DNA from: Paracoccaceae bacterium
GTDB lineage: Bacteria; Pseudomonadota; Alphaproteobacteria; Rhodobacterales; Rhodobacteraceae
DNA: 64,000 nucleotides
Direction: 5' to 3'
Assembly (NCBI GenBank): GCA_965214695.1
Contig: CBDCCF010000001.1
Span: forward strand, 18,838 to 82,837
How positions within the stretch are numbered: position 1 is the first letter of the stretch; every line of letters begins with the position of its first letter. Made by a program: the position numbers and the translations under genes. Shown here one piece after another: positions 5,213 to 48,070 of the stretch. The notes below the pieces were generated by a model. That model saw only the letters and a list, made by a program, of their open reading frames with translations, ran no database searches and was not told where the DNA came from.

Positions 5213-5794
5213 CTTCGAATCCTTCGTCCAGGCACCGCCCGTTCCTCCAGGAAAATTTTGTCCATTTCCCGGGTGACCTCGTGAGCACATGGGAGCTAGC
5301 CGGTGTTAGGTTCAGTCACAGGTTGAACTTTTTGGCGTCGCATCGTCCTTGCATAATTCTTGCAACGGCGACTCGCTAGCGGACGTTGGCGTTGATGACG
5401 GCGGCTACAAAGAAGATGACTATAATGATAGTGATGGCGGACCTAGCGGTGGATGTTTACGATTAAGGTAATGGCGCCAACGACGGGATAGAATAAGGCA
5501 TCATTAAATTATACATCAGGCGCATGACATCGGCGTGTCATTTTGAGCAACCTCTGTATCAAGGTTGTGTCAATATTTCTATGCCTGGTGGAATGGGGTT
5601 ATTTGGACCATGCTCGCGCTGGACAGGGCTTGCAGCCGGTCACTGCGAAAGGGTGGGGCGCGGTGGTCATTGTGCCGGATCTGGCACGTCCTATCAAGCA
5701 GAATAGAGAAATCAAGACCGGCTAGCAGCAGAACGGCACCGGCGCGCAGCGCCCATGCCCATTACTTTACATGCCTGGCCGCATCTTCCTCTGC

Positions 5795-6760
5795 AGCTCA
5801 GTACCAGTCTACGAAGGGTACCTTCAAGGGACGACCTTATACGTGCATCTCGTTTTGCAACAGGGTCGGACACACTAACGGACCGATCCGTTTCCGTCAA
5901 CAACTCTTGCCCTCTACCTCTGGCAACGCTCTGATCCTAGAGTGTGAGGTACAGTTTCTCTGGATCTACTGCTTTCTCCTCGATGACGAGGCGACCGGTT
6001 CTGCCGAAAACGGTCAGGGCGATCTGTTTCCGTCAACAACTCCGGCCTTCTACCTCTGGCAGCGCCCGGACCCTAGAAAGTCCGGTACAGCGTCTGCGGG
6101 GTGGCGTTATCCTCTTGATGACCAGCGCGATCAAGTGCCCAAAGATGGGCAGTCTGTTTCGTTTTCGTCAACAACTATCCGTTTCTACCTCTGGCAGCGC
6201 CCAGACCCTAGCATTCCTGGTCAAGTGTTCCTGGGGCGACGTCTTTCCCCGGTCCCGGAGCGACCGGGTTTCCAAGAGAATACACAAACAGATAAGGGCA
6301 CCCACAAGAGGTGCCCCTACACGTACGGTTCGTTTCGCAACAGGGTAAAAGATGCGCAAAATGGGCCGATCCGTTTCCGTCAACAACTCTTGACTTCTAC
6401 CTCTGGTAATACCCTGATCCTAGAGTTTCTGGAAAAGCTTCCATGGAGCTCTGTTTTTTCCTCGATGACGAGGCGGCCAGCTTGATCAAAAAAGGGCAGA
6501 TCGATCTGTTTTCGTCAACAACTCTATCCGTTTACCTCTGGAGGTTCCCAGATCCTAGCGTACAGTTACAGCGGCTCCGGGCTGCATTCTGCCTCGCGAT
6601 GACGGGGCGGCCGGTTTTTCCGAAAACGGGCAGATCGATCCGTTTCCGTCAACAACCCGATCCGTTTCCGTCAACAACCCGATCCGTTTCCGTCAACAAC
6701 CCCCCCTTTTTCCGTCAACAACTATCCGTTTCTACCTCTGGTAGCACCCGGACCCTAGGA
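5795..6760 (+). repeat. iteron-like complex repeat array (candidate replication origin or regulatory region)
   Basis: Nine or so copies of the core (C)CGTTT(C)CGTCAACAAC, at 5888, 6024, 6161, 6371, 6506, 6640, 6662, 6684 and 6707. Three of them are 22-bp tandem GATCCGTTTCCGTCAACAACCC units at 6637-6700. The cores sit inside about 135-bp higher-order units that also repeat CTACCTCTGGCA..GACCCTAG and the hairpin TCCTCGATGACGAGGCG. Confidence 0.85.
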
Positions 6761-6844
6761 TAGCTAGGTAAAGCTATCCAGGGGACTGCGCTTTTCCTGG
6801 CGGGCGCAGCCCCTGGAGATGGATAAAGGCATGAGTCCTCATTG

Positions 6845-8410
6845 TCAGTGAAAGAGACGTGACAATGGGACGGCGTCGAACGCTCTGTCGCCGCGAAGGT
6901 TATTCACCTGGGTCTGGGCTTCGATAAAGCGCGCCGACGCCCTTATCCGAACGCCGCCGAAGTTGTGGCCGGGACCTGGTTTGCCTGTGATGATGTCTAC
7001 GATTTCGACTGTGTCACCAGCCCCGGCCTCTGCTGACAAGCGGGGCAACAGGTATTCTCGAGTTTCAAGTTCGACCGTCAACCGCTTCCACAGCTGTGCT
7101 GTTGCGTTCAGCGAACGCCGGTCCGACAGGTCGAAGTGGAAGCCAGAGCGTGCCAGAAGATGGGGGTAGGGTATGAATTCCGACGTCGGCCCCGGGCCGC
7201 CCTTCTTTTGCGGGATCAGCAGCCTTGAACGCCGATCCTTTGCGGGGGAGCCGGCGGCGGCGATGAAGTCCTCGCACCCTGCGATCAGGCGGCCGAATGA
7301 TCCGCTTTTGTCTTGTCGATTCGACTGGTTGGTGAGTACGCCGGTCAGGCGATAGCCTTTGCTTTCCGTCCAACGGTAGGGCCATATCCGCAATCCCCCG
7401 TCCGGCAGCCCGCCTGTTTCGATCTCCAATAATGCCCGCCAGTGTCCCGTCGGTGTACGCAGCCACATGGAAACCCAATGTATAGAGTCCCAAGCCCTTT
7501 CCCGCCATCGTTTTCGTTGATCAGGGCTAATGCCGGTCGGATTGAAGCGCCCGGTCATCATTGCGCCCAATCTATCGACGTGCATCACGATGTCTTCCTG
7601 GATGGCCGAACCGAGCACGAGGAGATAAAGCGCATCGCCTGGAAGCGGGTTGCGGCGGTCGATCTTTGCGTGTTGTTCGATTGCCTGGATCATTGCGAGG
7701 CGCAGGTCGATCGCTTGTTGCGTCCCAGGCAGGGGCAGGAGGGTTCGTTCTTCCCTCTTTAATCTGGCCCGCTGCGGCATGTAATGGAGTTGAGACGCGA
7801 CCGGCTCTCCGTCTACTTCTACAACTACCGCATCGGGCATCTGTTCCCATGTTGCCAGGGCTGCGGTTTTGGCCGGGTGGGGTATGCGGGCCAGATTTGC
7901 CGCGCCGGCGGTATAGACTCTTACTTTTTCCGGATCGGTTGGTCGAGTCAGCCATGCTTCTAGCAGGGCGGCCAGCGGGTGTTTCAGAGCGGGTTTAGTG
8001 CCTACGTTCTGATAGATTACGTGAATTGCTTCAAAGCCTGCGACCAGCAGATCTCGAAATGCGCTCTTATCGCTCTGATATGGGTTATCCACCTTGATAA
8101 TCTGCCACTGTTTTTTCGACATCTTTGTGGCTGCCAGCAGATAATGACAACCCCATTGCATCTGCACAAGCTTCACAGCGGATCTGCCGGCTTCTTTTTC
8201 CAACAGGGTGGAGAGCGCTTCAACATCCAGTTTTTTGAGCAGCGCCTCGGCGCGTGTGGTGAATTCCTGCAGGCCTTTACTCAACCACGGCGCTGGTTCG
8301 GTAATTGCGTTGGCGATGTCCCGCGGCTGCGGCTCGGGCGTACTTTGCGGCAGATCGTGTTTTGTCAGGAGTTGCCCGAACAGGTTGCTCCAACGGTTTT
8401 TAAATTTCAC
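6845..8410 (-). CDS. hypothetical 521-aa protein, last gene of the replication-module operon
   Basis: Long ORF overlapping the upstream ATPase gene by 11 nt. No motif recognised. Confidence 0.7.
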   Translation of the reverse strand: MKFKNRWSNLFGQLLTKHDLPQSTPEPQPRDIANAITEPAPWLSKGLQEFTTRAEALLKKLDVEALSTLLEKEAGRSAVKLVQMQWGCHYLLAATKMSKKQWQIIKVDNPYQSDKSAFRDLLVAGFEAIHVIYQNVGTKPALKHPLAALLEAWLTRPTDPEKVRVYTAGAANLARIPHPAKTAALATWEQMPDAVVVEVDGEPVASQLHYMPQRARLKREERTLLPLPGTQQAIDLRLAMIQAIEQHAKIDRRNPLPGDALYLLVLGSAIQEDIVMHVDRLGAMMTGRFNPTGISPDQRKRWRERAWDSIHWVSMWLRTPTGHWRALLEIETGGLPDGGLRIWPYRWTESKGYRLTGVLTNQSNRQDKSGSFGRLIAGCEDFIAAAGSPAKDRRSRLLIPQKKGGPGPTSEFIPYPHLLARSGFHFDLSDRRSLNATAQLWKRLTVELETREYLLPRLSAEAGAGDTVEIVDIITGKPGPGHNFGGVRIRASARFIEAQTQVNNLRGDRAFDAVPLSRLFH

Positions 8411-9611
8411 TTGTCACCTCTCTGCGCCGGGGATCCTTGTTGTCGCTCTTCCGGTCCGGGGCGGTCGTATTCTGGCTGGCTGGCTTTTCTACTTCGGCGA
8501 AGCGGCCTTCGATGAACCACAGGTAGACGGGCTCGGGGGGCGCGCCTTCGTTGAGTTTGTCCACCTGGAGGATACGTTCGCCGCCCGGGGCGGGGACCAG
8601 CTTGCTCTGCTCGTTACCGTCCTTTACTTTCGCGGTTTCAAGTGTCCAGACGGCCTGGACGCCGTTGCGCCAGTCGGTGCTGCCGGACTGTGCGCTGTCG
8701 CCTTTGGGGGGATGGGAGATGATGAGGACGGCGCAGCTGTGGTCTTCGGCCCACTGGTCGAGGGCGGAGAGGAAGGCTCTGACGAGGGCGCGGTCGTTTT
8801 CATTCTGGACGAAGGCGGCGGCGAGGGGGTCGATGACCAGGAGGCGGGCGTGTGCGGCGGCGGCGTAGTCGAGGAGGGCATTCCCGCCTTCGAGCCAGGA
8901 TCCGGCTGTGCTGGTGTGGGCACCCTGTGCTGCGCCCCAGAGGCCGCCTGAGGGGCGCATGTTCACGTAGTGCAGCTGACCGGTCAGTTGACGGATTCGT
9001 TCTGCCCGGTCTGCGCCCTGACCGCAGACGGCGGCAAGGCGGTTTTGCCAAGCGAGGAGCCTGGTCTCCCAGGCGGCAAAAACGACCGGGCCTGCGGCGA
9101 GAAGTTGGGGCGCTTTGAGGCCGTTCAGAATGGCAGCGCCGCTCTCCGTCTGAATGAAGCGTTCGGCGCCGGTTGCCACGGCCACTGCGAGCTGCAGGGC
9201 GATGCGGCTTTTGCCGGCGCCGCCGGCACCGGTCAGCACGGAGAGGGTGGCGTCCGGCATCCAGTCTTTGACAAGCCAGGAGACCGGGGGCGGGTTCGGG
9301 CTGTGGTCGGTCAGTACGTTGGCCAGGGCCGGGCCGGGGTTGAGAAGCTGCCGGATTTTGGATTTGGCCTTCTGCTGATCTGCATCATTTTGTGAGCGCA
9401 GACCTTCGGCTATGTCTGCACCGGTAGGCGCGGCGGCGCCGGCATATTGACCGGCCGCCAGGGCTGTCTGGAGGATGGCCCTGGCTTTCGGATCGTCATT
9501 GCCGGCCGCCAGGGCTGCCTTAAGCTTGTCGTATGCCGCGGCTACGGGGTCGGGCAGGATGTGTTCGGTTTCGGCTGCGATCTGCGGCCGTCCGTTTTGT
9601 CGTTCATTCAT
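8400..9611 (-). CDS. RecA-fold ATPase, RepA/AAA_25-like (plasmid/phage replicative helicase type)
   Basis: Walker A LTGAGGAGKSRIALQLAVAVATG and Walker B-like LLVIDPLAAAF. Overlaps the primase-like gene by 8 nt. Confidence 0.78.
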   Translation of the reverse strand: MNERQNGRPQIAAETEHILPDPVAAAYDKLKAALAAGNDDPKARAILQTALAAGQYAGAAAPTGADIAEGLRSQNDADQQKAKSKIRQLLNPGPALANVLTDHSPNPPPVSWLVKDWMPDATLSVLTGAGGAGKSRIALQLAVAVATGAERFIQTESGAAILNGLKAPQLLAAGPVVFAAWETRLLAWQNRLAAVCGQGADRAERIRQLTGQLHYVNMRPSGGLWGAAQGAHTSTAGSWLEGGNALLDYAAAAHARLLVIDPLAAAFVQNENDRALVRAFLSALDQWAEDHSCAVLIISHPPKGDSAQSGSTDWRNGVQAVWTLETAKVKDGNEQSKLVPAPGGERILQVDKLNEGAPPEPVYLWFIEGRFAEVEKPASQNTTAPDRKSDNKDPRRREVTSEI

Positions 9612-10719
9612 GCTTTGGTTCCTGTAGTGGTGCTGACGCGGGGTCGTGGCCGGCGGCCAGCCTCTTGATGATTACGCGGTAGCCCTGGTCGGCCCAGCGC
9701 TGCGCTGTTTTGTTCGCTGCCCTGGCGCCGGGTTCGTCGGCGTCGGGCCAAAGGGTGATTGTGTCGAAGTAGCCGGGTTGGATGCGGGCGTAGCTTGTGC
9801 CGGCGCAGACGGCTACGAGGGCGGGTTCGGTTGCGTAGCGGAGGATGCGCAGGCCGTCGGCGAGGCCTTCGCAAATGTGCAGGGCGTTGGCTGCGACATG
9901 GAGCCGGCCGCGCCAGAGGAGGCCGTAGAATGGGCCTGCGCCGTATGTACGTTTGTCGGCGTTGTCCTGCCAGTGTCGGGCTTTGCCGCCGGTTTTGTCG
10001 ATGGCGACGAGCTGTATTTTGCGCGGAGGCGCCGCGGGGTTGTCGAGCGGACGCATTGCCATGACCAGGGCGCCGGCGGCGGTGCTGTCCGGGTGGCCGC
10101 GGGGAAATTTGCGATGGTTGCGGGGGAGCCATCGTATCGATTCGGGCAATGGTTCGGCGGGGGCCCAGAGGCTGCGTTTTGCGATCCACTTTGACGCGGG
10201 ATGTTGGGAGGCGGGCCCCGTCGTGGATGCTTGCGCGGCGGCCCACAGTTCGGCGGCGTAGGCGTTCGTATCTTTGCTCTGGCCCGGTCCTGAGCGGCCC
10301 TGAGCGCCGTTTTCGGCGTTTTTGGGGCTGAGATACCTTTTTGCCCGTTCAGGCCGCCTGAGATTGCCTGAGGCTTGTTGAGCGCCTTGCGGCGGCGCTG
10401 CGTCTGTGCCCGGGGGCGGCTGGCCGGCACGAAAGGCGGCGAAGCAGGCGTCGCAGCGGCAGAGCCAGAGGCCGGTTACCTGCTGGAGGGCGTGGCGGAT
10501 GGCGATTGAATCGCAGTTGCGGCTGTGGCAGTGGACGCGCAGGGGGAACTCGCCGGGGCGGTCGCCGTCCTGGAAGGAGAGGGCGGTCTTGTTGTCACCG
10601 CCGTGGCAGATGGCGGTCGATGTGCGGTACCAGCCACCGGATGTGGTATGGGGGAAGGGCAGCCTGGCCGCTACCTCGGCAGCGGTTGCAATCGGGATAT
10701 GGTTTGTATTTGTGTGCAT
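9604..10719 (-). CDS. Toprim-domain primase-like protein with an N-terminal Cys/His zinc-binding region
   Basis: Zinc-finger-like CHGGDNKTALSF...HCHSRNCD. Toprim motifs ICEGLADGL and WPDADEPGARAA. Confidence 0.72.
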   Translation of the reverse strand: MHTNTNHIPIATAAEVAARLPFPHTTSGGWYRTSTAICHGGDNKTALSFQDGDRPGEFPLRVHCHSRNCDSIAIRHALQQVTGLWLCRCDACFAAFRAGQPPPGTDAAPPQGAQQASGNLRRPERAKRYLSPKNAENGAQGRSGPGQSKDTNAYAAELWAAAQASTTGPASQHPASKWIAKRSLWAPAEPLPESIRWLPRNHRKFPRGHPDSTAAGALVMAMRPLDNPAAPPRKIQLVAIDKTGGKARHWQDNADKRTYGAGPFYGLLWRGRLHVAANALHICEGLADGLRILRYATEPALVAVCAGTSYARIQPGYFDTITLWPDADEPGARAANKTAQRWADQGYRVIIKRLAAGHDPASAPLQEPKHE

Positions 10720-10768
10720 ATATATTACAGTTGCAGGTGAGATCGATAGGGTCTTGTGTGCTGATTTG

Positions 10769-10812
10769 GCCCCGCTCCGGAGGCAGCCGGAACGGGGCTT
10801 TTCTTTTTGTTT
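10769..10812 (+). terminator. intrinsic-terminator-like hairpin plus T-run, oriented on the plus strand
   Basis: GCCCCGCTCCGG-aggcag-CCGGAACGGGGC followed by TTTTCTTTTTGTTT. It lies between the minus-strand RHH and primase genes. Confidence 0.5.
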
Positions 10813-10842
10813 ATGGACAAACGGTGTACAGAGCCCGGGCGG

Positions 10843-11070
10843 CTATTGCTTGGTTTCCTGTTCTTCTACCCGGGCGGCCGCGTGCAGCAGAGCGTCGCGC
10901 ACGAAGTCGGAGAAGCGTTGTTCGCTCGCTTCAGCGGCGGCGATGATGCGGCGTTTGTCACTGGCGGTTACGCCGACCGAGATCTGGGCCGTTTTTCTGA
11001 AGTCGGCGGAATTTCTGACTCTTGGATTCTGTGCGGTCTTCGGATGGGGTGAGTCACTCTTGGTTTGCAT
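10843..11070 (-). CDS. ribbon-helix-helix (CopG/MobC-like) DNA-binding protein
   Basis: 75-aa ORF. The RHH-like segment ISVGVTASDKRRIIAAAEASEQRFSDFVRDALL sits upstream of the primase operon. Confidence 0.55.
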   Translation of the reverse strand: MQTKSDSPHPKTAQNPRVRNSADFRKTAQISVGVTASDKRRIIAAAEASEQRFSDFVRDALLHAAARVEEQETKQ

Positions 11071-11209
11071 GAGCGTTCTCTCTTCAAGGTATCTGCGTGC
11101 GTGGTACGGGGTGCGTGATTGTCTAACTTAAGATCAATAGCATGGATTGGGAAACTGATCAAGTGGGATTTTTGTTTGGTATAGAAGAGAGTTTGTGCTA
11201 TTTCGGGCA

Positions 11210-11368
11210 GGGGATTAACGGCAGGGATTAGGGGATAGGGGTCAGGGGTTAGGGAAAGGGCGAGTCTCAGTGCGGGGATAGCGTATAGGGCGAAGGCAGG
11301 GGCGCCACAAGGGGTCTCCCTACGGGCGGGGGTAGTTCGATTCTGCCTGCGGGCATCCAGCAGTTGTC
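11210..11368 (+). repeat. composite intergenic element: heptamer G-tract repeats, CACAAGG hairpin motif and a tRNA-like T-arm
   Basis: Tandem heptamers GGGATTA GGGGATA GGGGTCA GGGGTTA GGGAAAG (11224-11258), then GGCGCCACAAGGGGTCTCCCTAC. After that comes GGTAG-TTCGATT-CTGCC (canonical T-loop) plus TGCGGGCA. A homologous element lies at 25393-25500. Confidence 0.6.
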
Positions 11369-11405
11369 AGACTTTTGAACAGTCTTTGCCAAATGGAGGC
11401 GGAAC

Positions 11406-11675
11406 CTAGTAGCTGTCAACGAGGTCGGGCTGGAGCTGGAGCGCCTGGTCATAGTCGGTGATGGCGTACTGGTATTGACCGAGGTGGGCCTTAGCAACAC
11501 CCCGATGGACGTAGATGCTGGCTTTGTCAGGCTGGAGTTAGGGGGCCTGGCTATAGTCGTCGACGGCATCCTGGTATTGGCCAAGCTTAACCTTTGCGTG
11601 GCCCCGATAGAGGTAGGCGCGGGCATGGTCGGGCTGCAGGCGGAGACGGAGGGTCTGATTCAGGTCAGCGATGTG
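11406..11675 (-). pseudogene. TPR-repeat gene fragment with an in-frame TAA and no start codon
   Basis: The minus frame reads HIADLNQTLRLRLQPDHARAYLYRGHAKVKLGQYQDAVDDYSQAP*LQPDKASIYVHRGVAKAHLGQYQYAITDYDQALQLQPDLVDSY*. These are two 34-aa TPR units. Confidence 0.6.
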
Positions 11676-12187: not shown

Positions 12188-12847
12188 TCAGTCCGCGTCG
12201 CGCGGAAGATAGTCGGGACTGCCAGGAAACATCCCGTGCGATAGGAACGCAATGGTGGACTTGTCAGTGATGCCAGGAATCTCCGCTGCAAGAGTTATCG
12301 TACCTTCTTCTTGAGAAAACGTCACTTCGATCTCGCTCGACAAGAATTCATGCGAAGTGAATTCTTTGCCATTATGTTCTGCAATGTAGCGACCGCATTT
12401 ATACAAACCTCCTGCAACCATGGGCTCAGCCGGCCAGATCAAGTCGTAGTAAGTGGCTTGAAACCTATAGTCAGGATGACTCATCGGAGTTAGCGGATCT
12501 CCCTCAATGCTGACAAGCACTACCCACTGATTTGCCTCAAGTCTCCAATGTCCGGGATTCTGACTGTAGTGCGCCTCTTCGGGAAGATCGCGAAGGTAGA
12601 AGGTCGCAGTCAGGAGTTCGCCGTTCAATTCAGAACTTACGCCGATTATGTCGCCGGAGCCAAACAAATTCTCGGAAACCTCCCCTTCCACGTTCTGCCC
12701 TGGCGATATGGCGATGTAACCTAGCGGATAGTCGCCGTAAATCGACCGATGATAGGGCCACGGTGGTAGCAATTCGACGCTGTACATCAGGACCACACAC
12801 GCGGCGATCAGCAGCACACAAGCGGCAACCAGCAGCTTTTTCAACAT
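12188..12847 (-). CDS. membrane-anchored hypothetical protein
   Basis: The internal start MLKKLLVAACVLLIAACVVLM gives an N-terminal TM or signal anchor. No family recognised. Confidence 0.55.
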   Translation of the reverse strand: MLKKLLVAACVLLIAACVVLMYSVELLPPWPYHRSIYGDYPLGYIAISPGQNVEGEVSENLFGSGDIIGVSSELNGELLTATFYLRDLPEEAHYSQNPGHWRLEANQWVVLVSIEGDPLTPMSHPDYRFQATYYDLIWPAEPMVAGGLYKCGRYIAEHNGKEFTSHEFLSSEIEVTFSQEEGTITLAAEIPGITDKSTIAFLSHGMFPGSPDYLPRDAD

Positions 12848-13150: not shown

Positions 13151-16126
13151 CTATTGCTCGAAGTCCTCTGGATACAACGACACGAGGATGTAGCGCTCCA
13201 ATGGCAAGAATGCCGCGGCTGCCGCCTGGATGTCAGCGGCGGTTACGGCCTCTACCTGGCTCTCCACGACCTCAAGGTCGACATAGGCAGCCAGGTCGAC
13301 ATTATCTTTTTCGGTGTAGCGCTCCAAAACGTGCTGCCAGTAACGGTTCTGCTCCAACTGTTCCTCGCGCTGATGTATGATCTGCGCCTTGGCTTTTGCC
13401 AGCAGATCGTCCCTGGGGCCGTCGGTCTGCAGTTCTGCGATCAGTCCGAAAAGGAGTTTCACCAGCTCCTGCGCCCGTTCCGGATCGCTGCCGAAGGAAA
13501 AGGAGATTTCGTAGAGGCCGTCGGGCTCGGGTTTCATCGAGGCCCATACGCTTGATGTGTATACGCCGCTCCGCTTCTCTCGCAACTCTTCCCGCATCAG
13601 GATGTCTAGAACTGTCTCCAACATGCGCAGGCGCAGACGGTTTTTCAGCGTATCTTCGCCGGGACCGGTGAACAGGATCTGGGTGAAGCTCTGCTCCTCC
13701 TGACCGCGGTAGACCGGCAGTTCGACGATTCCCGCCGGCGGATCCGGGGAGACGTCCTGCCAGGTTTCGACGCGATGCAGTGACGGCAGATTGCCCAGGT
13801 AGATCTGCGACCAGTCAACCATCTGCTCGACGTCGAAGTTGCCGACAAAGAGGAATGTGAAGTCGCTGAAGTCGGCGAATCGCTCCTGGTAGATGGAGAA
13901 GGCGCGCTCCGGGTCAAGCGATTCGATCATCTCCAGCGTCGGGACGGCGTGGCGGATCGACTTGCCGTAACGGGCTTCGGTGACGGCATCCATCAACGCG
14001 ACGTAAGGCATGAGTTCACGGTTGCGCAGGCCCTCGGTGGTCTGATCCTTGACGGTGGCAAAGGCGTCCTCGTCTGCGCGGGGCGCGGTGCCGTAGAGAT
14101 AGACCAGCTGGAAAACTGTTTCGACGTGATCTTTGCCGGCCTGACCGTAGAATCCCTCCTCCAACTCATAGATGAACGGGGTGACTCTGACCGACCGCTC
14201 GGCCAGCAGCCGCTGCAGCGCCGCGTAGCTGACGTCGCCGACGCCGCTCTGGTAGATGATGTTGTTGATGAAGTGCGCTTCCGGATAGTCTTCATCGGTG
14301 ACCAGCGAGGAGCCGCCGGGGCTGGTAGCGCTGAACAGCACCTCCTCTTCCTTGAACGCGGTTGGCTTTAGCAGTACCCGCACGCCGTTGGCGAGGGTCA
14401 GGTCGGTGATGTTGTAGGCTTCGTCGGTACGCCGTGAGATGATATCGGCCGGTTGCGGGATGTCGGTCAGGAGGGTTGTGACGGCTTCGATGTCCTGGTA
14501 GGGATCGATCTGTTTGGCCTGTACCGCCTCGATGACGACGGCCAGCTCCTCCTGGCTGGACAAGCTGCCGGCCTCCCGCTGCGGGCCGATGATCAGCACT
14601 GAGCGATTGCCCGTACCCACATATTGATCCGCCAGCCGGTTGACCTCGGCGGGCGTGATCTCCGGCAGCAGCCGCTCTACCAGTCGATACTCGAAGGCAA
14701 TACCGGGGACGGGCTCGTCCTGCAGGAAGTTGCGGCTGTATTCTCTAGCCAGGGTGTGACTGTCCAGGTTTTCGCGGGCATTGAACGGACGCTCGTAGGC
14801 GTTCAACAGTTCAGATCTGGCCCGCTCCAGTTCGGCGGCGGTGAAGCCGTGACGGCGCACCCGTTCTATTTCTGTCAGGGCCGCGCCCAGGCCGGAGAGA
14901 ACCTCGCCCGGGCGCGCATGCACGGCGACATCCTGGGAATAGACATTCCGCACCAGCTGGCCTTCGGTTACGAAAGCGCCCAGAAAGGGGGAATCGGCTT
15001 CTCTGGCGATATCGTTGAGCCGGTAGTTCAGCATCATGTAGAACAGGCGGCCGATGATGGTGTCTCTGTAGGCAGCAAGGGTGCCCGGTTCGCCGACGGG
15101 CAGTTTGTAGTTGATCTGGGCAAATGTCAGCGGCATTTCGGGATCTGTGAAGATCAGATAGCGGGTATCGCTATGATCCGGCACAGAATATGTGAGTCGG
15201 GGCCGGGGACTTTGCGGCGCCGACAACCCGCTGAAGTGCTCGATGATCTTCGTTTCCATGTCGTCCGCATCGATATCGCCCACTACGATCACCGCCATCA
15301 GATCGGGGCGGTACCAGTCACGGTAGAAACGGCGCAACGTTTCCGCCGGCGCGTTGCGGATGATCTCCAGTTCGCCGATCGGACTCCGCTCAGCGTAGCG
15401 GGATTCGCCCAGCAGGAAGGGGATAAGCTGCTTGTTCAGGCGGCCAAAGACGTTTTGGTTCCGCAGGCGTTCCTCTTCGAGGATGACGCCGCGTTCTTTG
15501 TCTACTTCCTCATCGGAGATGGTGGCGCGGCCGGCCCAGTCCTCGGTCACCTGGAATGCGGTGTTGATGATCGCTTCGTCGTCGGTGGGAAACTCCAGGA
15601 AGTAGACCGTCTCTTCGTAGGATGTATAGGCGTTTACATCGCCCCCGAAGGACATACCGATGCTTTCGAAGTAGTCGACCAGCGCCTGTTTGGGGAAGCG
15701 CTCGGTGCCGTTGAACATCATGTGTTCGAGAAAGTGGGCCAACCCGAGTTGGTCGTCATCCTCCTGGACGGAACCGGCGTTGACGACCAGCATCAGGGTG
15801 GCGCGGTTGGCCGGCTCTGTATTGTGACGAATGTAGTAGGTCAATCCGTTATCCAGTTGCGCTTTGCGGATGCTTGGGTCCATGGGCAGGACTGCAGCCA
15901 TGTCCAGCGTTTCGCTTGCGGGGTCCAGGAAGGTTTGCGCCTGTTCGGTCTTCATTGCCAGCGTAGCGGCGGCAGGTTCGATGGGTTGACAGCCGCCGCC
16001 GAGCACTGTAAACAGCAGAAGAATTCCAGCCAGCATCTTCACCTTACTCGCTTTTCGGCCGGGGATTGTTCCGTCGCACCGGTTCTTTGCAGAAGTTGCA
16101 TACTGTGAAGTCACCGTCTTATTCAT
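13151..16126 (-). CDS. M16-family (insulinase/pitrilysin-like) zinc peptidase, double-length (PqqL-like)
   Basis: HFLEHMMFNG (HxxEH) plus a downstream NAYTSYEETVYF glutamate. 991 aa, consistent with two M16 active/inactive pairs. N-terminal lipobox LGGGC. Confidence 0.9.
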   Translation of the reverse strand: MNKTVTSQYATSAKNRCDGTIPGRKASKVKMLAGILLLFTVLGGGCQPIEPAAATLAMKTEQAQTFLDPASETLDMAAVLPMDPSIRKAQLDNGLTYYIRHNTEPANRATLMLVVNAGSVQEDDDQLGLAHFLEHMMFNGTERFPKQALVDYFESIGMSFGGDVNAYTSYEETVYFLEFPTDDEAIINTAFQVTEDWAGRATISDEEVDKERGVILEEERLRNQNVFGRLNKQLIPFLLGESRYAERSPIGELEIIRNAPAETLRRFYRDWYRPDLMAVIVVGDIDADDMETKIIEHFSGLSAPQSPRPRLTYSVPDHSDTRYLIFTDPEMPLTFAQINYKLPVGEPGTLAAYRDTIIGRLFYMMLNYRLNDIAREADSPFLGAFVTEGQLVRNVYSQDVAVHARPGEVLSGLGAALTEIERVRRHGFTAAELERARSELLNAYERPFNARENLDSHTLAREYSRNFLQDEPVPGIAFEYRLVERLLPEITPAEVNRLADQYVGTGNRSVLIIGPQREAGSLSSQEELAVVIEAVQAKQIDPYQDIEAVTTLLTDIPQPADIISRRTDEAYNITDLTLANGVRVLLKPTAFKEEEVLFSATSPGGSSLVTDEDYPEAHFINNIIYQSGVGDVSYAALQRLLAERSVRVTPFIYELEEGFYGQAGKDHVETVFQLVYLYGTAPRADEDAFATVKDQTTEGLRNRELMPYVALMDAVTEARYGKSIRHAVPTLEMIESLDPERAFSIYQERFADFSDFTFLFVGNFDVEQMVDWSQIYLGNLPSLHRVETWQDVSPDPPAGIVELPVYRGQEEQSFTQILFTGPGEDTLKNRLRLRMLETVLDILMREELREKRSGVYTSSVWASMKPEPDGLYEISFSFGSDPERAQELVKLLFGLIAELQTDGPRDDLLAKAKAQIIHQREEQLEQNRYWQHVLERYTEKDNVDLAAYVDLEVVESQVEAVTAADIQAAAAAFLPLERYILVSLYPEDFEQ

Positions 16127-34523: not shown

Positions 34524-34835
34524 TTGATGATAGCGGCCGTCTCGGAGCGAGCTTCCGAACTGGAACAACTCTGCGTACTCCATCATGTTAAACGGCTGGA
34601 CATGTTCGGCTCAGCCGCCTCAGGCGACCAGAGAGAGGACACCAACGATTTGGACTTTCTGGTCGAGTTCCAGACGTTACCCGCGGGGGCGTATGCCGAT
34701 GCCTATTTTGGGCTGCTGGAGGCCCTGGAAACGCTGCTCGAAGGTCCTGTTGATCTTATTGTCGACTCGGCGATTCGGAATCCCTTCTTCCGGCAGCGCG
34801 TTGAAGAGACCAGGACATTACTTTATGCGGCTTGA
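34524..34835 (+). CDS. mntA: MntA-type nucleotidyltransferase antitoxin
   Basis: The motif LDMFGSAASGDQREDTNDLDFLVEF is the GSx(n)DxD minimal nucleotidyltransferase signature. Confidence 0.8.
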   Translation: MMIAAVSERASELEQLCVLHHVKRLDMFGSAASGDQREDTNDLDFLVEFQTLPAGAYADAYFGLLEALETLLEGPVDLIVDSAIRNPFFRQRVEETRTLLYAA

Positions 34836-35164
34836 GGTTAAGAAGTACCTGTTTGATATTCGTAGCGCAGCGGACCGGTTGGCTGAGTTTCTGGCCGGAA
34901 AGACATTCGCTGATTATCAACGCGATGCCATGCTGAGAGCGGCTGTAGAGCGCCAATTTGAGATCATTGGCGAGGCGATCTCTCAACTCGCGCGGTTTGA
35001 TGAGGAACTGGCAGCGCGCATCATCCACTTTCGACGCATTGTCGCTTTCCGCAATCCTGATACACGGATACGCCGATGTGGACGACGGGCTGGTGTGGGA
35101 TGTGGTTGAGACGAACTTGCCCCTGCTTCGTCAGGAGGTTGAGAGACTGATAGACGAGGAATGA
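34825..35164 (+). pseudogene. hepT: HepT (DUF86/HEPN) toxin gene, frameshifted inside the RX4HXY motif
   Basis: Frame 1 reads MRLEVKKYLFDIRSAADRL...RRIVAFRNPDTRIRR. Frame 2 continues ..LIHGYADVDDGLVWDVVETNLPLLRQEVERL. The expected ..FRN(I)LIHGY.. is broken near 35055-35062. Confidence 0.7.
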
Positions 35165-37409: not shown

Positions 37410-37814
37410 GTGCCGATACCATTTGAACTTACAATTGATCGAGCGCCTGTATCTCAACAGGCTCGTAGAAGGCGGCGTGTAAGGAACTGGACTCAGGAGG
37501 TGCGAAGCGTCGCTGAAAGAGAATGGAAAGATGAAGCGCCCGTTTCCGAAGAACTCATGGTGACGATCACTTATTTCTACGACAGCACGCCCATGGATGT
37601 TGACAACATCCCCAAACCAATACTGGACGCATTGAAGGATCTGATCTTCTTTGATGACGCTCAGATAACGGATTTGCTTTGCCGAAAGAGGGTTCTGAGG
37701 CCCAGTTTTCAGACCCAGAATCTATCACCTGTCTTGCACCGGGCTCTCGGCCTGTCCAGACAGTTTGTTCATATCTTCGTGGAGGATGCGCCGGACCAGG
37801 AGGTGGTATCTTGA
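37410..37814 (+). CDS. RusA-like Holliday-junction resolvase family protein
   Basis: GTG start. Contains the RusA-type motif DVDNIPKPILDALKDLIFFDDAQI. Confidence 0.65.
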   Translation: MPIPFELTIDRAPVSQQARRRRRVRNWTQEVRSVAEREWKDEAPVSEELMVTITYFYDSTPMDVDNIPKPILDALKDLIFFDDAQITDLLCRKRVLRPSFQTQNLSPVLHRALGLSRQFVHIFVEDAPDQEVVS

Positions 37815-38470
37815 TTGAAGACATTGAAATTCTGGAAAAGATATTTATCGCTAAGACAGCGGCCAAGTACCGCAGCCGGGGCTATGAAGTGGAGGAAGAC
37901 TGCCCGTTGGAGTTCCTGCCTGGCTTTCGCTCCGATCTTGTTGCGCGCAAAGATGGCGATGTGAGGGTGATCGAAGTAAAGACCAGGACGTCTCTGGCGT
38001 TGACGAAGAAGTTGAATGAACTGGCCGAAATTTTGTATAGCAAGCCCGGTTGGAGCTATGACCTGCTTCTGGTGGGCGAACCGGAGAAACTGGAGTCGCC
38101 CGAGGGCGCGCAGCCGTTTGCGGAGGCGGAGATCCGGAAACGGCTTACCGAGGCGGAGGCCGTTCTTGAGAAGGGTTCGGGTGAGGCTGCCTATTTGCTG
38201 GTCTGGTCGGCTTGCGAGGCCGCTATTCGCAATTTGATCGGGACCGAAGGGATTGCCATCGCGCGCGTCACGACGGCGTCATACGTCCTCGATATGGCGG
38301 TCATGCACGGCATCATTTCGCGCGAGGACTACGACTATCTGACCGACATGATGAAGTATCGAAACGCCATTGCCCACGGCTTTGATGTCAACGGGTTCAG
38401 CGACGAGAAGGTGACGGAGTTGATCGAGGTCGTTGTGCGGCTGCTGGATTCGGAGCCTGAACTGGTGTAG
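37811..38470 (+). CDS. PD-(D/E)xK nuclease-like N-domain fused to a HEPN-like C-domain
   Basis: The putative TTG start overlaps the RusA-like stop (TTGA). N-domain: FRSDLVARKDGDVRVIEVKTR (D...ExK). C-domain: MKYRNAIAHGF (Rx4H). The start codon is uncertain. Confidence 0.55.
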   Translation: MIEDIEILEKIFIAKTAAKYRSRGYEVEEDCPLEFLPGFRSDLVARKDGDVRVIEVKTRTSLALTKKLNELAEILYSKPGWSYDLLLVGEPEKLESPEGAQPFAEAEIRKRLTEAEAVLEKGSGEAAYLLVWSACEAAIRNLIGTEGIAIARVTTASYVLDMAVMHGIISREDYDYLTDMMKYRNAIAHGFDVNGFSDEKVTELIEVVVRLLDSEPELV

Positions 38471-38960: not shown

Positions 38961-40823
38961 CTTTCAGTGCTCTCTCTGTAGAGCCGTATGGTGGTTCGTC
39001 GATGCGGGAACCGACGCGTCCCAATCAACGTCCTTTCAGTGCTCTCTCTGTAGAGCCGTATGGTGGTTCCTTTGATTTCACGGCCACGGACGTATCGGAG
39101 CCGGTCTTTCAGTGCTCTCTCTGTAGAGCCGTATGGTGGTTCCTGGAGAGGGAACGGCAGCAAAAGGCATTGATATTTCTTTCAGTGCTCTCTCTGTAGA
39201 GCCGTATGGTGGTTCGCCCCTGACCGCGTGCCAGTCGGCGTCCGGCACCTGCCTTTCAGTGCTCTCTCTGTAGAGCCGTATGGTGGTTCTTGTCGGCGAG
39301 GCGGGCCCGGAAGCCGTCATACCGCTCTTTCAGTGCTCTCTCTGTAGAGCCGTATGGTGGTTCTTTGCGGCGGATTGAAACTCAGATACGAGTTATGTCT
39401 TCTTTCAGTGCTCTCTCTGTAGAGCCGTATGGTGGTTCGGCGTATCGTGATTTTGCTGCGTCTGATTTGTCGGCCTTTCAGTGCTCTCTCTGTAGAGCCG
39501 TATGGTGGTTCAATACTCGCTCGATCCCCAGACGAGAAAGTTTGTCCTTTCAGTGCTCTCTCTGTAGAGCCGTATGGTGGTTCGCCTGCGCCCGCGACGT
39601 ACTGCTTAGAATCAGGCCTTTCAGTGCTCTCTCTGTAGAGCCGTATGGTGGTTCGATGGTTGGCTATGGCGGCGGCTGCCGTTTCGGGCTCTTTCAGTGC
39701 TCTCTCTGTAGAGCCGTATGGTGGTTCCGCCTTCCAACCTGGCTTAGAGTATCTGCCCATTATCCTTTCAGTGCTCTCTCTGTAGAGCCGTATGGTGGTT
39801 CTTTGCATAGAAAAAGCCCCCGGATATGTGATCCGACTTTCAGTGCTCTCTCTGTAGAGCCGTATGGTGGTTCTAGCAGTCGATGGCGGGCTGGTCGTCG
39901 GTGAAGATCTTTCAGTGCTCTCTCTGTAGAGCCGTATGGTGGTTCGCCTGCGCCCGCGACGTACTGCTTAGAATCAGGCCTTTCAGTGCTCTCTCTGTAG
40001 AGCCGTATGGTGGTTCGATGGTTGGCTATGGCGGCGGCTGCCGTTTCGGGCTCTTTCAGTGCTCTCTCTGTAGAGCCGTATGGTGGTTCCGCCTTCCAAC
40101 CTGGCTTAGAGTATCTGCCCATTATCCTTTCAGTGCTCTCTCTGTAGAGCCGTATGGTGGTTCTTTGCATAGAAAAGTGGCCGTAAGTCATCCAGATCTT
40201 TCAGTGCTCCCTCTGTAGAGCCGTATGGTGGTTCAGCCCAACCGTCTCCGATGTACCTTCTCATTTGAACCTTTCAGTGCTCCCTCTGTAGAGCCGTATG
40301 GTGGTTCCTTAGCTGTTCCAGCTTCGACTACCATAAGATAGGGACTTTCAGTGCTCCCTCTGTAGAGCCGTATGGTGGTTCGGCGCCCACAAAGTCAACT
40401 GGAAAGGCTCACTCGCACTTTCAGTGCTCCCTCTGTAGAGCCGTATGGTGGTTCTCGAGTAGGATGATTCCCTCGGGGCCGAAGCTGATGAGCTTTCAGT
40501 GCTCCCTCTGTAGAGCCGTATGGTGGTTCCTCCCGCACCTATAACTACACAATCACGGATTCGCACTTTCAGTGCTCCCTCTGTAGAGCCGTATGGTGGT
40601 TCGAATGGCACGGCCTACGCCGCGACCGAGGCGGTAAACTTTCAGTGCTCCCTCTGTAGAGCCGTATGGTGGTTCGATGAAATCGGCCAGGTTGAAGCGG
40701 TAGATCGTGTTGACTTTCAGTGCTCTCTCTGTAGAGCCGTATGGTGGTTCAGCTGCTCGGCATAGTCGATGTGCTCCTCTGCGGTGCTTTCAGTGCTCTC
40801 TCTGTAGAGCCGTATGGTGGTTC
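38961..40823 (-). CRISPR. CRISPR array: 26 repeats of 37 nt, 25 spacers of 34-38 nt
   Basis: Plus-strand repeat CTTTCAGTGCTCTCTCTGTAGAGCCGTATGGTGGTTC, first at 38961 and last at 40787. The minus-strand reading GAACCACCATACGGCTCTACAGAGAGAGCACTGAAAG has a 5-bp stem (GCUCU/AGAGC) and an 8-nt ACUGAAAG tail. This fits transcription from the cas4 side. Confidence 0.97.
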
Positions 40824-41111: not shown

Positions 41112-41756
41112 CTATAGCATGTCATTGCAGAAGCGGCGGAACTCGCAGTCTACACAGCGGCTGCGCTGTCTGGCTGGAACCGGCGGCATCCGTTCGGCGA
41201 GGACCAAGGTGCGGATTTCGGCCAACTGGCGACGGACATCGTTGCGCAGGCGGGTGGTGACGGGTACGCGGACGGCTTTGCGCGCCGGGGTCAGATACAG
41301 GAAACCATGTTCCACCGGCAGCTGCCATACCTCTTCCAGCAATAGCGCATAGCAGGCTAGCTGCAGCTTGAAGTGGCGTCCAGGCTCCCGCCGGCTCAGC
41401 TTGTAGTCGACCGGGATCAGCCGGTCCTCGCCGTTGACCGTATGTCTGATCACCAGGTCTATCTGTCCGCTTACGCCCAGTTGTCCAGAGGCTAGCGAGA
41501 CATTGAAGTGACGCTCGCCCTCTGTCAGCCCATAGGCGCGTAGCGAACGCCTCCGCTCCAGCTCTTCAGCGCGGTCCTGGGCGCGGATGCCGGCATCCAT
41601 TTTGTAGGTGGTGGGCCGCACCTCCGGCAAACAGTAGTGGTAGTAAGGGATGCGGGGGCAGTAGGCGAACTGTTTGAGGTCGGTTACTTTGAGCAGCCAC
41701 GCGGTATGTTCCGACACTTGCGCGTCCGTGGGCGCAGGAATCTCCGGCATGGTCAA
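41112..41756 (-). CDS. cas4: Cas4 (RecB-like nuclease with a 4-Cys cluster)
   Basis: N-terminal FAYCPR, RecB motif IDLV...VDYKLS, and C-terminal CVDCEFRRFC. Confidence 0.9.
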   Translation of the reverse strand: MTMPEIPAPTDAQVSEHTAWLLKVTDLKQFAYCPRIPYYHYCLPEVRPTTYKMDAGIRAQDRAEELERRRSLRAYGLTEGERHFNVSLASGQLGVSGQIDLVIRHTVNGEDRLIPVDYKLSRREPGRHFKLQLACYALLLEEVWQLPVEHGFLYLTPARKAVRVPVTTRLRNDVRRQLAEIRTLVLAERMPPVPARQRSRCVDCEFRRFCNDML

Positions 41757-42013
41757 TCCTCCTCCATGCCCTGCTCGATGACCAGGCGTTTGCGCCAGTC
41801 CTCCTTGCAGAGGGGGAAGAGGTGCACGCGGGCGGCGGCTTTGCCGATTTTCTGTTCGATCTTCAGCATCAGCTCCTCCTGATGGTTGGCGCCCAGGCGG
41901 CCGAGGAAGGCGCTGTACTGCAGGCGGTCGAGGCCGTAGTCAAGACAGAAGTCGGCGACCTTGGTGCGCACGCGGTCGTCAGGAATGTCATAGAGCAAGA
42001 GGCAACGGATCAT
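41753..42013 (-). CDS. cas2: Cas2
   Basis: 86 aa with LLLYDIPDDRVRTKVADFCLDYGLDRLQYSAFLG. Overlaps the cas4 start by 4 nt. Confidence 0.9.
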   Translation of the reverse strand: MIRCLLLYDIPDDRVRTKVADFCLDYGLDRLQYSAFLGRLGANHQEELMLKIEQKIGKAAARVHLFPLCKEDWRKRLVIEQGMEED

Positions 42014-42035
42014 ATTGCTTTTTCCTAAAGGCCGA

Positions 42036-43088
42036 TTACCAGCTCGAGACGAATGGGCTGTACGCGTCCCGCTCGCCGCGCAGGTAGGCGGCCAGATGGC
42101 GGGCCTGCATCTGCACGATGTTGCGCAGGGGATGGCGCTTGTCCTCGTACCGTTCCTGGGCTTCGAGGCGGGTGAGGACTTTATCGGCCAGAGATCTGCG
42201 GGCCTTTTCGGTGAGGCGGCCGCGGCCGTCCAGTTCGACGGCGGCGCCGCGGTTGAAGAGGGCCAGGACCGTGCGGTCCACGATGGTCTGGCGAAACTCC
42301 TCTACCATGTCGTAGACCAGGGCCGACTTGCCGGGGCGATCGGTATGCAGGAAACCGGCGTAGGGGTCCAGCCCGGCAAGCACGAGGGCCCGTTCAACCT
42401 GGCTGTAGAGGATCCCGTAGCCGTAGTTGAGGGCGCTGTTAAGCGGGTCGCTGGCGCCCTGCGTGCGCCGGCCGGGCCAGTTGACATCGGCCAGGAGGAG
42501 TTTGCCGATGGCCTGCCAGTATTTCTGTGAACCGCGGCCTTCGATGGAGAGGATCTGTCCGCGCACGTCATCGACGGTATAGCTTCTGACAGGGTTTTGG
42601 ATAGATTCGGCGCGCAGCCGGTCCAGTTCGGCGACGTGGTCGAGCACGTCGCCGGCGAGCAGGCGCACTTTCTTGTACAGGTCCGGCTGTTTGGCCTTGC
42701 GGTATTTGGCCATGTATTTGAGCAGGTTGATCTGGTTGCTCAGCTTGCCTTCGGCCACGGCCAGGGCAATGTGCAGACCGCGGCTGTCCTGGCGGGCCTC
42801 GAGCTGGGCCCGGCGGGTTTGCACGGTTGCAGCCAGGCCGGCGCTGTAGAGGCTGCCGACCGGTTTGCCGCGGCGGCTGAGGAAGTGGATAGGCACACCT
42901 TCTTCGGCGCAGGCGGCCACGACGTCGCTGCTGAGGCTTACGCCGCGTCCGGTGATGAGGACGGTTTCGAGGTGCATCAGGGGCGCGTCGCCCCGTTTTT
43001 CGCCCTGGCAGGTGACGCGCAGGCGCCCGCTTTTTTTGGCGACAAAGCTGCCGAACTCGTCTACGATCAGGTGTTGAACGATGGGCAT
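42036..43088 (-). CDS. cas1: Cas1 integrase
   Basis: 350 aa from MPIVQHLIVDEFGSFV. Typical Cas1 blocks: NSALNYGYGILYS, GLDPYAGFLH, LVYDMVEEFR. Confidence 0.92.
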   Translation of the reverse strand: MPIVQHLIVDEFGSFVAKKSGRLRVTCQGEKRGDAPLMHLETVLITGRGVSLSSDVVAACAEEGVPIHFLSRRGKPVGSLYSAGLAATVQTRRAQLEARQDSRGLHIALAVAEGKLSNQINLLKYMAKYRKAKQPDLYKKVRLLAGDVLDHVAELDRLRAESIQNPVRSYTVDDVRGQILSIEGRGSQKYWQAIGKLLLADVNWPGRRTQGASDPLNSALNYGYGILYSQVERALVLAGLDPYAGFLHTDRPGKSALVYDMVEEFRQTIVDRTVLALFNRGAAVELDGRGRLTEKARRSLADKVLTRLEAQERYEDKRHPLRNIVQMQARHLAAYLRGERDAYSPFVSSW

Positions 43089-43100
43089 GGCATCTCCTGG

Positions 43101-43135
43101 GAGTGGATAGTGGGTAGTGAATAGTGGATAGTTGA
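43101..43135. repeat. five tandem heptamers TAGTGRR between cas6 and cas1
   Basis: GAGTGGA TAGTGGG TAGTGAA TAGTGGA TAGTTGA. Confidence 0.75.
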
Positions 43136-43143
43136 CAGAGCAG

Positions 43144-44190: not shown

Positions 44191-44215
44191 GCGGCGTTCT
44201 TTTCTTTCCGCCTGT

Positions 44216-44950: not shown

Positions 44951-44952
44951 TC

Positions 44953-45918: not shown

Positions 45919-45989
45919 GAGGTGTACTCCGTTGACAGTGTTAGGAATTGCCGGTGCAACTTGGAAAGGGTCGAGTATACATCGTGGAC

Positions 45990-47759: not shown

Positions 47760-48070
47760 CAGGCCTCCTCGACGGGATCAAAAAGATCAAGTTGTACATG
47801 CTGCGACTCGCCCATATACTGTCCAGATTGAAACTGAACACTATTTACACCGAAAAGCACCCGACATAATTCGTAAAGAGACTTCAAGTCACAGATTGGC
47901 AGTTCCCACATACCGATCTGTTTATGCCATTGCATGTGTGGGAATCGTTCTCTGAAGAACCGAAGATATCGAAAGAAGAGCACTTGGGATGAAACGTTGT
48001 CAAGGCGAAAATAGACATGGCGGGATGAAACAGCTAAAGTTATCTGTGGAATTTTGACTATTGTATTCAT
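47759..48070 (-). CDS. 103-aa hypothetical protein translationally coupled to the large-subunit gene
   Basis: GGAG RBS 6-10 nt upstream of the ATG at 48070. Its stop TGA overlaps the cas8-like ATG (ATGA at 47757-47761). The sequence is AT-richer than its neighbours. Confidence 0.55.
   Translation of the reverse strand: MNTIVKIPQITLAVSSRHVYFRLDNVSSQVLFFRYLRFFRERFPHMQWHKQIGMWELPICDLKSLYELCRVLFGVNSVQFQSGQYMGESQHVQLDLFDPVEEA

Follow-up and report, generated by a model that had tools for sequence, protein, structure and literature searches.

A probable plasmid replication module centred on a putative iteron-binding initiator and a conserved downstream repeat array

The 64-kb window analysed here, a stretch of 64,000 nucleotides from contig CBDCCF010000001.1 (assembly GCA_965214695.1), carries at positions 5814-11070 a field of short repeats and a set of minus-strand genes which together are probably (at a probability of about 0.78) the replication module of a circular plasmid of ~110-113 kb, with a 521-aa protein acting as the initiator alongside the plasmid's own helicase and primase. 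Comparison across related sequences supports the view that the repeats behave as iterons of a replication origin and that the 521-aa protein is the best candidate for the initiator, because a tandem array follows the homologous gene in all ten related loci scanned with Tandem Repeats Finder (TRF), the predicted fold matches RepE-type initiators only, one relative carries a DnaA_N domain, and the neighbouring gene encodes a helicase like that of RSF1010. The initial annotation of this DNA had recognised the layout of iterons next to rep genes and had put forward the 521-aa protein as a candidate novel initiator; the equivalent arrays in the related loci strengthen the former proposal, and an un-annotated protein family, the co-variation of protein and repeat, and the RepE-only fold matches strengthen the latter.

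Tandem iterons, origin core and repeat field

The repeats accompany the protein family over a wide range of divergence. In each of the ten scanned loci (loci are designated L001 and so on, with their repeat units listed in Table 1) two to four copies of a 21-22-bp unit start 0-130 nt past the stop codon of the family gene. Close relatives (L006-L009, L016-L018) share the array of the window, and at least seven distinct iteron sequences track the identity of the initiator-like protein from 98% down to 24%, the array being kept at the lower end (L015) although no primase or helicase gene adjoins. As a control, the 211.6 kb of the ten loci were found to hold 16 arrays with a period of 20-24, ten of which are these post-gene arrays. 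The gene trio itself, running from primase through AAA_25 ATPase to the ~520-aa protein, is conserved at 34-59% identity, often with a small gene in front. The 13,985-bp ENA contig ctg11705_178x_l (178x coverage; L010/L013), from the same metagenome-assembled genome (MAG) as L008, encodes a paralogue of the initiator (59% identity) accompanied by four perfect iterons of 22 bp, as well as methyltransferase-HNH genes, a resolvase and a second pair of primase-like and AAA_25 genes; it is possibly a small plasmid of this family residing in the same cell. L001 contains at 12698-12763 a second, unrelated 22-bp tandem array of three copies, upstream of a gene (13326-14192) with weak DnaD_N and HTH_36 matches, which suggests a second pair of origin and initiator beside the first.

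The tandem iterons form part of a conserved core, which in the window occupies 6636-6817 and there contains, in order outward from the gene, a GC-rich hairpin, a double CCTAG box, a TACC-N3-GGTA palindrome, an 11-nt spacer and three to four tandem 22-bp iterons. The distance from palindrome to array is exactly 11 nt in the window, L003, L005, L011 and L012 despite their different iterons, and one-mismatch or half palindromes can be read from the sequences of L001, L004, L010 and L014. The pattern CCTA-N-CCTA occurs eight times in the 211.6 kb of the ten loci, every time 32-59 nt from tandem iterons. The hairpin was detected by the search tool in nine of the ten regions and recognised by eye only in L012; its arms measure 9-19 nt (12-19 nt in seven) and are 90-100% complementary, the value being 95-100% in eight of the nine tool-detected loci and 90% in the window. 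Since the arm sequences vary from locus to locus yet stay paired, the pairing is evidently maintained by selection. None of the core hairpins has a U-tail, and in L003, L004 and L014 the whole core, hairpin included, is inverted relative to the gene, so that the hairpin is not simply an operon terminator. Candidate roles for it are those of a protein site or of a signal for priming on single-stranded DNA, and transcription of the rep operon may stop there as well.

In the window the core is accompanied by a longer field of repeats. Nine copies of the 17-mer CCGTTTCCGTCAACAAC with at most two mismatches, as many as the initial annotation had reported, lie on the plus strand between 5888 and 6722 (five perfect, one with one mismatch, three with two), compared with a mean of 0.20 expected from shuffles, in which ten copies were never reached; a tenth match, at 26718, has three mismatches and is at chance level. 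The three perfect 22-bp tandem units also described there were recovered by TRF together with a fourth, degenerate one (period 22 bp, 4.0 copies), and plasmid copies with 99.8-99.9% identity to one another have either four or three tandem iterons, a difference of one 22-bp unit. The 17-mers start 136, 135, 212, 135, 134, 22, 22 and 22 bp apart. Of the ~135-bp higher-order units that had been proposed, each with a box and a hairpin, the spacing and the box are borne out, whereas the hairpin, CCTCG-ATGA-CGAGG, is less general, being perfect at 5978 and 6460 and degenerate at 6594.

Six aligned units share a conserved block of ~50 bp, GATCYGTTTYCGTCAACAACT-N8-TCTACCTCTGG-N7-C.GAYCCTAG, after which come ~85 bp that are variable in sequence but nearly constant in length. 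The TCTACCTCTGG box has six copies in the field (0.6 expected), and CNGAYCCTAG likewise has six (0.8 expected), all inside the field; the sole match of either motif elsewhere in the 64 kb is a TCTACCTCTGG with one mismatch at 8517 on the minus strand. The field can also be described as a higher-order duplication of ~480 bp (5814-6293 versus 6294-6790), its two halves divided by a ~70-nt leader with a hairpin (6292-6320), and in several units local hairpins are followed by T-rich runs. Because each dispersed unit keeps one iteron, the left palindrome half (TCTACCTCTGG) and one CCTAG box (a single GAYCCTAG), the most fitting reading of the ~135-bp units is that the origin core was duplicated in tandem and that the copies are degenerate. 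The same layout of dispersed units was found in L005-L009 and L016-L018. Long fields are clade-specific, and most relatives have the tandem array only. The clade of the window has six to eight units; the longest field seen is that of L005, where three tandem iterons are joined by seven dispersed ones spaced 134-137 bp apart. Units measure ~320 bp in the L009 field and ~460 bp in L001 and L012, where they contain inverted iteron pairs.

For the dispersed units, the main alternative to a part in replication is that the 1-kb field serves chiefly as a partition centromere, bound either by the ribbon-helix-helix (RHH) protein encoded at the head of the operon, in the manner of ParR or ParG, or by the 521-aa protein. 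In type Ib and type II partition systems the centromere consists of direct repeats to which RHH proteins bind, the 134-137-bp spacing of the units is held while the spacer sequence drifts, and a ParA gene lies just past the repeats of L003. The genes of the window include no ParA, ParM or ParB gene near the field, however, and the feature common to all loci is not the long field, absent from most of them, but the 21-22-bp tandem array beside a RepE-like protein, which is present even where no RHH gene is adjacent (L015). A field that is mainly a centromere is on these grounds considered unlikely.

The 521-residue protein and its partner genes

No Pfam, PHROG, NCBIfam or PDB sequence match was obtained with the 521-aa protein, nor with profiles built from 17 and from 123 family members. 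PLSDB plasmids and GenBank phages, searched by blastn and tblastn for the region, the 521-aa protein and the helicase, gave no match either, a scan of IMG/VR returned no relative, and no description of the family or of these plasmids was found in the literature. Relatives nevertheless exist in number: 18 were collected by a word-indexed search and 389 representatives (clustered at 50% identity) by a full hidden Markov model search, almost all of them ~500 aa long and carrying no informative name in any source. The dN/dS ratios of 0.10-0.36 across the module genes indicate purifying selection, with the 521-aa gene the most constrained (0.10-0.19). In L005, a relative at 86% identity, the initiator gene (9391-10957) was called as two open reading frames (ORFs) of 169 and 318 aa, reflecting either a broken gene or an assembly error.

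Structure prediction suggests a link of the family to known initiators. An AlphaFold model based on 17 close sequences had a low predicted local distance difference test (pLDDT) score of 58.6, and its Foldseek matches were taken as a lead only; a model from a 123-sequence alignment reached a pLDDT of 82.8 and a predicted template modelling (pTM) score of 0.78. The top ten Foldseek matches of this model in the PDB are all RepE54 of plasmid F or the complex of a Rep protein with a DNA unwinding element (DUE), aligned over 225-250 columns with probabilities of 0.80-0.91 and target-normalised TM scores of 0.47-0.53, and the BFVD viral structure search gave nothing significant. Foldseek did not report the aligned residues, and from the secondary structure of the model the RepE-like match can be placed roughly at residues 230-505. 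In this model a helical N-terminal domain (residues ~1-155), which is variable across the family, is followed by a beta-rich middle domain, and the C-terminal ~250 residues have the predicted RepE-like fold, which by analogy with RepE would comprise two winged helices. In the metagenomic relative P0051 (584 aa), the variable helical N-terminus is replaced by a DnaA_N domain (residues 9-68; 40.2 bits, E = 2.7e-10). The N-terminal domain of DnaA functions in helicase loading and oligomerisation.

The genes upstream of the initiator gene would encode further replication proteins. The 403-aa ATPase has a single sequence match in the PDB, the RepA helicase of RSF1010 (1g8y, E = 5.1e-08). The gene for the 371-aa protein, the proposed primase, lies upstream of the helicase gene also in L003, L004, L005 and L014, and no match to RepB was found for its product; in the same four loci a small gene occupies the position of the RHH gene. 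The RHH protein would be the repressor of the rep operon. An operon of four overlapping genes had been described in the initial annotation: there are indeed four minus-strand genes, and the last three overlap (primase and helicase genes by 8 nt, helicase and initiator genes by 11 nt), but the RHH gene is separated by 123 nt from the primase gene and the Pfam match of its product lies below threshold. The spacer between these two genes (10728-10822) contains a strong hairpin, which recurs at the same place nearly identical in L009 and with a different sequence in L005, and which, judging from its U-run, is a candidate terminator of a countertranscript for copy control; no sigma-70-like promoter for such an antisense RNA was found. 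Upstream of the RHH gene, a run of G-rich heptamers (GGGATTAGGGGATAGGGGTCAGGGGTTAGGG, 11213-11260) lies exactly at the synteny break with L008 and L009, and a 102-bp tandem repeat (11423-11636; 2.1 copies, 71% matches) lies inside a minus-strand ORF of 119 aa (11267-11626) without a family match.

Table 1. Elements of the putative replication module in window coordinates, followed by the tandem repeat units of the window and related loci
Feature	Position	Strand	Remark
Dispersed ~135-bp units (n = 5)	5814-6635		iteron starts 5888, 6024, 6159, 6371, 6506
Tandem iterons, 22-bp unit (gene sense GGTTGTTGACGGAAACGGATCG)	6636-6722	-	proposed initiator-binding array
Palindrome TACC-N3-GGTA (TACCTCTGGTA)	6733-6743		11 nt from tandem array
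Double CCTAG box (GACCCTAGGATAGCTAGG)	6749-6768		adjoins iterons
GC-rich hairpin (CCAGGGGACTGCGC / GCGCAGCCCCTGG), no U-tail	6778-6817		conserved core part
521-aa protein, proposed iteron-binding replication initiator	6845-8410	-	no Pfam match
403-aa AAA_25 ATPase, RSF1010 RepA-type helicase	8400-9611	-	AAA_25 E = 2.6e-28
371-aa protein, proposed primase	9604-10719	-	C-terminal Toprim (DnaG-like); Toprim_3 26.6 bits, just below the 27.2 cut-off
Hairpin in RHH-primase spacer	10769-10810	+	U-run on antisense (+) strand only
75-aa RHH protein (NikA-like or TacA-like)	10843-11070	-	NikA-like 24 bits, below the Pfam cut-off of 27
Repeat unit, window			GGTTGTTGACGGAAACGGATCG
Repeat unit, L010			TAGTGACGGAAACGAATCGGGT
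Repeat unit, L011			TTAGATCACGGAAACGAATCGG
Repeat unit, L001 and L012			TTATTTGACG(C/A)GAAGGGATCGG
Repeat unit, L004			TACCTTTGCGATCAAACAACCA
Repeat unit, L003			GGAGTGCTTTTCTGTAACGCAA
Repeat unit, L014			GGGAATTGTCGTCACAGGTCGG
Repeat unit, L015			CAAAGACCCTCCACTAAAGAG

Plasmid context and competing readings

The initial annotation had taken the genes flanking the module for chromosomal and had found the lack of an integrase puzzling, a view which does not agree with the assemblies of related DNA. Over 16.4 kb the window is 99.93% identical to the ENA contig ctg48839c (113,324 bp), which encodes the exact 521-aa protein, and a second window protein is also found on ctg35322c (111,262 bp), ptg001766c (112,452 bp) and scaffold_109 (110,179 bp), among others; a GenBank MAG contig (contig_4) measures 110,686 bp. 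In contigs named by metaMDBG and hifiasm, a final c presumably marks a circular and a final l a linear sequence, a convention that the metaMDBG paper does not state; ctg48839c, ctg35322c and ptg001766c all end in c. Independently of these names, five assemblies agree in size within 3 kb, and their start points differ by up to ~42 kb relative to shared genes; equal sizes with different starts point to a circle cut at arbitrary places and not to a chromosomal segment. The whole window is therefore most likely part of a plasmid, a circle of ~110-113 kb, which needs no integrase, and the absence of one is expected. The relatives in GTDB genomes are all MAGs, five of six being binned as Caldilineaceae and several apparently coming from marine sponges, judging by their names, and the plasmid host is most likely an uncultured sponge-associated member of the Caldilineaceae (Chloroflexota).

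That the module is instead the replication unit of an integrated chromosomal element, such as a satellite resembling a phage-inducible chromosomal island (PICI) or the remnant of an integrative and conjugative element, with its integrase lost or outside the window, is quite improbable. Resolvases or tyrosine integrases beside the module in three relatives combine with defence-island cargo to favour such an element, the succession of primase, helicase and downstream iterons resembles the pri-rep-ori region of Staphylococcus aureus pathogenicity islands (SaPIs), and the window contains ordinary-looking metabolic genes. Yet no integrase was found in the 74 kb that were read, where the ORFs of the window were tested, ARAGORN found no tRNA gene in the window, and no direct repeats of at least 11 nt flank the module; moreover, the match to a contig flagged as circular and the differing start points of the 110-113-kb assemblies speak for a free replicon. 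An indel beside the module in L008 and L009 likewise contains no integrase, only peptidase, kinase and leucine-rich repeat genes. Since the module is found beside integrases and resolvases in some relatives and on the 14-kb contig of 178x coverage in another case, it appears to serve several kinds of mobile element.

The cargo of the plasmids includes clustered regularly interspaced short palindromic repeats (CRISPR)-Cas, toxin and restriction genes, sulfatase and peptidase genes and assorted enzymes. A CRISPR array at 38961-40823 consists of 26 repeats (37 nt, CTTTCAGTGCTCTCTCTGTAGAGCCGTATGGTGGTTC) and 25 spacers of 34-38 nt, and genes for Cas1, a Cas6-domain protein, Cas7/DevR, Cas3 with a C-terminal HD domain and a WYL/WCX regulator lie on the minus strand at 41112-51771; a cas gene set beside an array identifies a plasmid-borne type I CRISPR system, whose spacers match none of the fetched loci. 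The segments 34585-35109 and 37679-38470 hold defence and toxin genes, for a HepT-like RNase and for an AHJR-like nuclease that includes a HEPN domain. In the plasmid variants L022 and L025, a type ISP restriction enzyme is encoded together with a tyrosine integrase and a UvrD/PD-(D/E)XK protein at places where different genes are found in the window. A DDE_Tnp_1 transposase insertion in ctg48839c (L016 1037-1942, corresponding to window position ~16370) is absent from the window, and an IS605-type OrfB/TnpB gene lies just outside the window (L016 and L017 from 21100, ~2.7 kb before the window start), where contig_4 also ends.

The initial annotation had also considered that the 17-mer might be scattered through genomes as a generic repetitive extragenic palindromic (REP) sequence. 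An exact-match scan of public metagenomes with CCGTTTCCGTCAACAAC returned 120 loci, of which 117 have one isolated match and three are multi-copy; in two of the three the 521-aa protein is encoded, at 98.7% and 97.7% identity, and the repeats follow directly on the 3' end of its gene, and the third, a piece of the field 2 kb long, contains no gene. With its copies in the window confined to the field and its multi-copy occurrences elsewhere either Rep-linked or a fragment, the 17-mer is not a generic REP. An Rfam scan of the whole window gave no match, and the idea of a small-RNA array was dropped because RNAalifold, applied to 39 aligned units on both strands, gave no consensus structure. An ORF of 291 aa placed across the field by gene callers (5565-6485) was rejected as a gene, given that the unit lengths (136, 134, 212) are not multiples of three and that no ORF was called over the field of L005. 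The call of that ORF and the local hairpins with T-rich runs are what favours a REP-like repeat, a small-RNA array or part of a repeat-protein gene, which in view of these results is hardly credible.

Several observations nonetheless weigh against the assignment of the segment as the replication module of a circular plasmid. Circularity is deduced from assembler flags, sizes and start-point offsets, and the closing junction lies within the ~38 kb of the circle that were not read, where there may also be a second origin; closure was sought through a truncated GSDH ORF, the full-length form of which was found only on an 8.5-kb scaffold. The relatives L001, L003 and L004, with a resolvase or tyrosine integrase beside the module, show that it also occurs in integrating elements. 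No DnaA box (TTATCCACA-like, at most one mismatch) was found at 5300-6900 or 10700-11400, and no clearly AT-rich unwinding element lies by the iterons, local A+T being at most 60% inside the field. The Foldseek E-values are sub-significant (0.2-0.4), and the 521-aa protein has no sequence match to Rep_3 or RepC. A role of the 135-bp units in copy control, read from their pattern of conservation, is speculative. The cumulative G-C minimum of the window, at ~6.8 kb, coincides with the proposed origin and lends it weak support, but is given little weight because rightward of the origin the skew stays positive over at least 64 kb (past 70 kb), more than half of the circle, without a simple bidirectional pattern.

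Relation to known replicons and proposed mode of action

Among characterised replicons, the plasmids of incompatibility group Q (IncQ; RSF1010 and R1162) offer the closest parallel in organisation. They encode the RepB' primase, the RepA helicase and the RepC initiator, and their oriV combines 3.5 iterons of 20 bp with the ssiA and ssiB hairpins. The module likewise has three plasmid replication proteins in the order primase, helicase and initiator, the helicase being a sequence relative of RSF1010 RepA, and three to four tandem iterons of ~20-22 bp with a hairpin element alongside. DnaA boxes are lacking in both, which suggests host-independent initiation. In contrast to IncQ, the initiator is not RepC (it matches no Pfam or NCBIfam family, is 521 aa long and has a RepE-like predicted fold), the primase is Toprim/DnaG-like and not RepB', the replicon measures ~112 kb compared to 8-14 kb, and the origin abuts the initiator gene and has, besides CCTAG boxes and a palindrome, degenerate cores arrayed over 1 kb. 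By analogy, the module may thus work like an IncQ replicon, of whose components only the helicase is homologous.

The module resembles plasmids of the Rep_3/RepE type (F RepE, R6K pi, pPS10 RepA, RK2 TrfA and P1 RepA) in the spacing of its iterons, which is about two helical turns, in a predicted C-terminal fold that matches RepE54 and a Rep-DUE complex, and in extra iteron clusters outside the minimal origin, such as P1 incA or F incC. These plasmids differ in that no sequence similarity to their initiators is detectable, in that the protein described here is about twice as long, with its ~155-aa helical N-terminal domain and beta-rich middle domain, in that the module brings its own helicase and primase where those plasmids use the host proteins DnaA, DnaB and DnaG, and in that DnaA boxes and obvious AT-rich 13-mers are missing. 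In the model, the 521-aa initiator has a RepE-like fold, a likeness that does not extend to its sequence, its size or its partners. Judged by defining sequence features, the module is a member of neither the IncQ nor the Rep_3/RepE group.

Two other systems share part of the arrangement. As in the pri-rep-ori region of SaPIs and other PICIs, an iteron origin comes directly after genes for a primase and a helicase; however, the Rep helicase of SaPIs itself recognises the iterons and the element is integrated by means of an integrase, whereas here there is a separate initiator and a plasmid. The CopG and RNAII control of pMV158/pLS1 resembles the module in its small RHH gene upstream of the rep genes and in a spacer hairpin with a U-run on the antisense strand. 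Unlike the module, pMV158 is a small rolling-circle plasmid, and the antisense RNA of the module is only a candidate.

From these comparisons a mode of action can be proposed. Monomers of the 521-aa protein would bind the phased iterons via the RepE-like C-terminal region and distort or melt the neighbouring DNA, and the variable N-terminal helical domain, in whose position one relative has domain I of DnaA, would recruit the plasmid's own RepA-type helicase. The Toprim primase would then prime synthesis, possibly at the extruded hairpin, and replication would, like that of IncQ plasmids, depend little on initiation proteins of the host. Expression of the operon may be set by the RHH protein, perhaps together with an antisense RNA from the RHH-primase spacer, and the dispersed 135-bp units could titrate or pair initiator molecules for the control of copy number or incompatibility, as in P1 incA or F incC.

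A further-reaching, tentative possibility, which is more doubtful than not, is that the 521-aa family represents a new and widespread class of replicon with a double-length RepE-fold initiator, a swappable N-terminus that loads a dedicated RepA-type helicase, a Toprim primase and a four-part origin of fixed geometry, in which the 135-bp array is a new kind of scaffold for copy counting or pairing instead of a simple incA-like cluster. If this scaffold did exist, the ~13 helical turns per 135-bp unit would put every bound initiator on one face of the DNA.

Replication modules are the basis on which plasmids are recognised and classified, and the present one is not revealed by Pfam or NCBIfam, nor by tblastn against collections of plasmids and phages. 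With the module recognised, circular contigs of ~110 kb in sponge symbionts can be identified as plasmids. The conserved geometry of the origin, together with the degenerate-core array, provides testable handles on how a RepE-like initiator may cooperate with a dedicated helicase and primase. The Chloroflexota have, to our knowledge, almost no genetic tools; as a cassette of ~5.5 kb with possibly few needs for host factors, the module is a candidate vector backbone for this phylum, and vectors built on it would be the first replicating ones known to us there.

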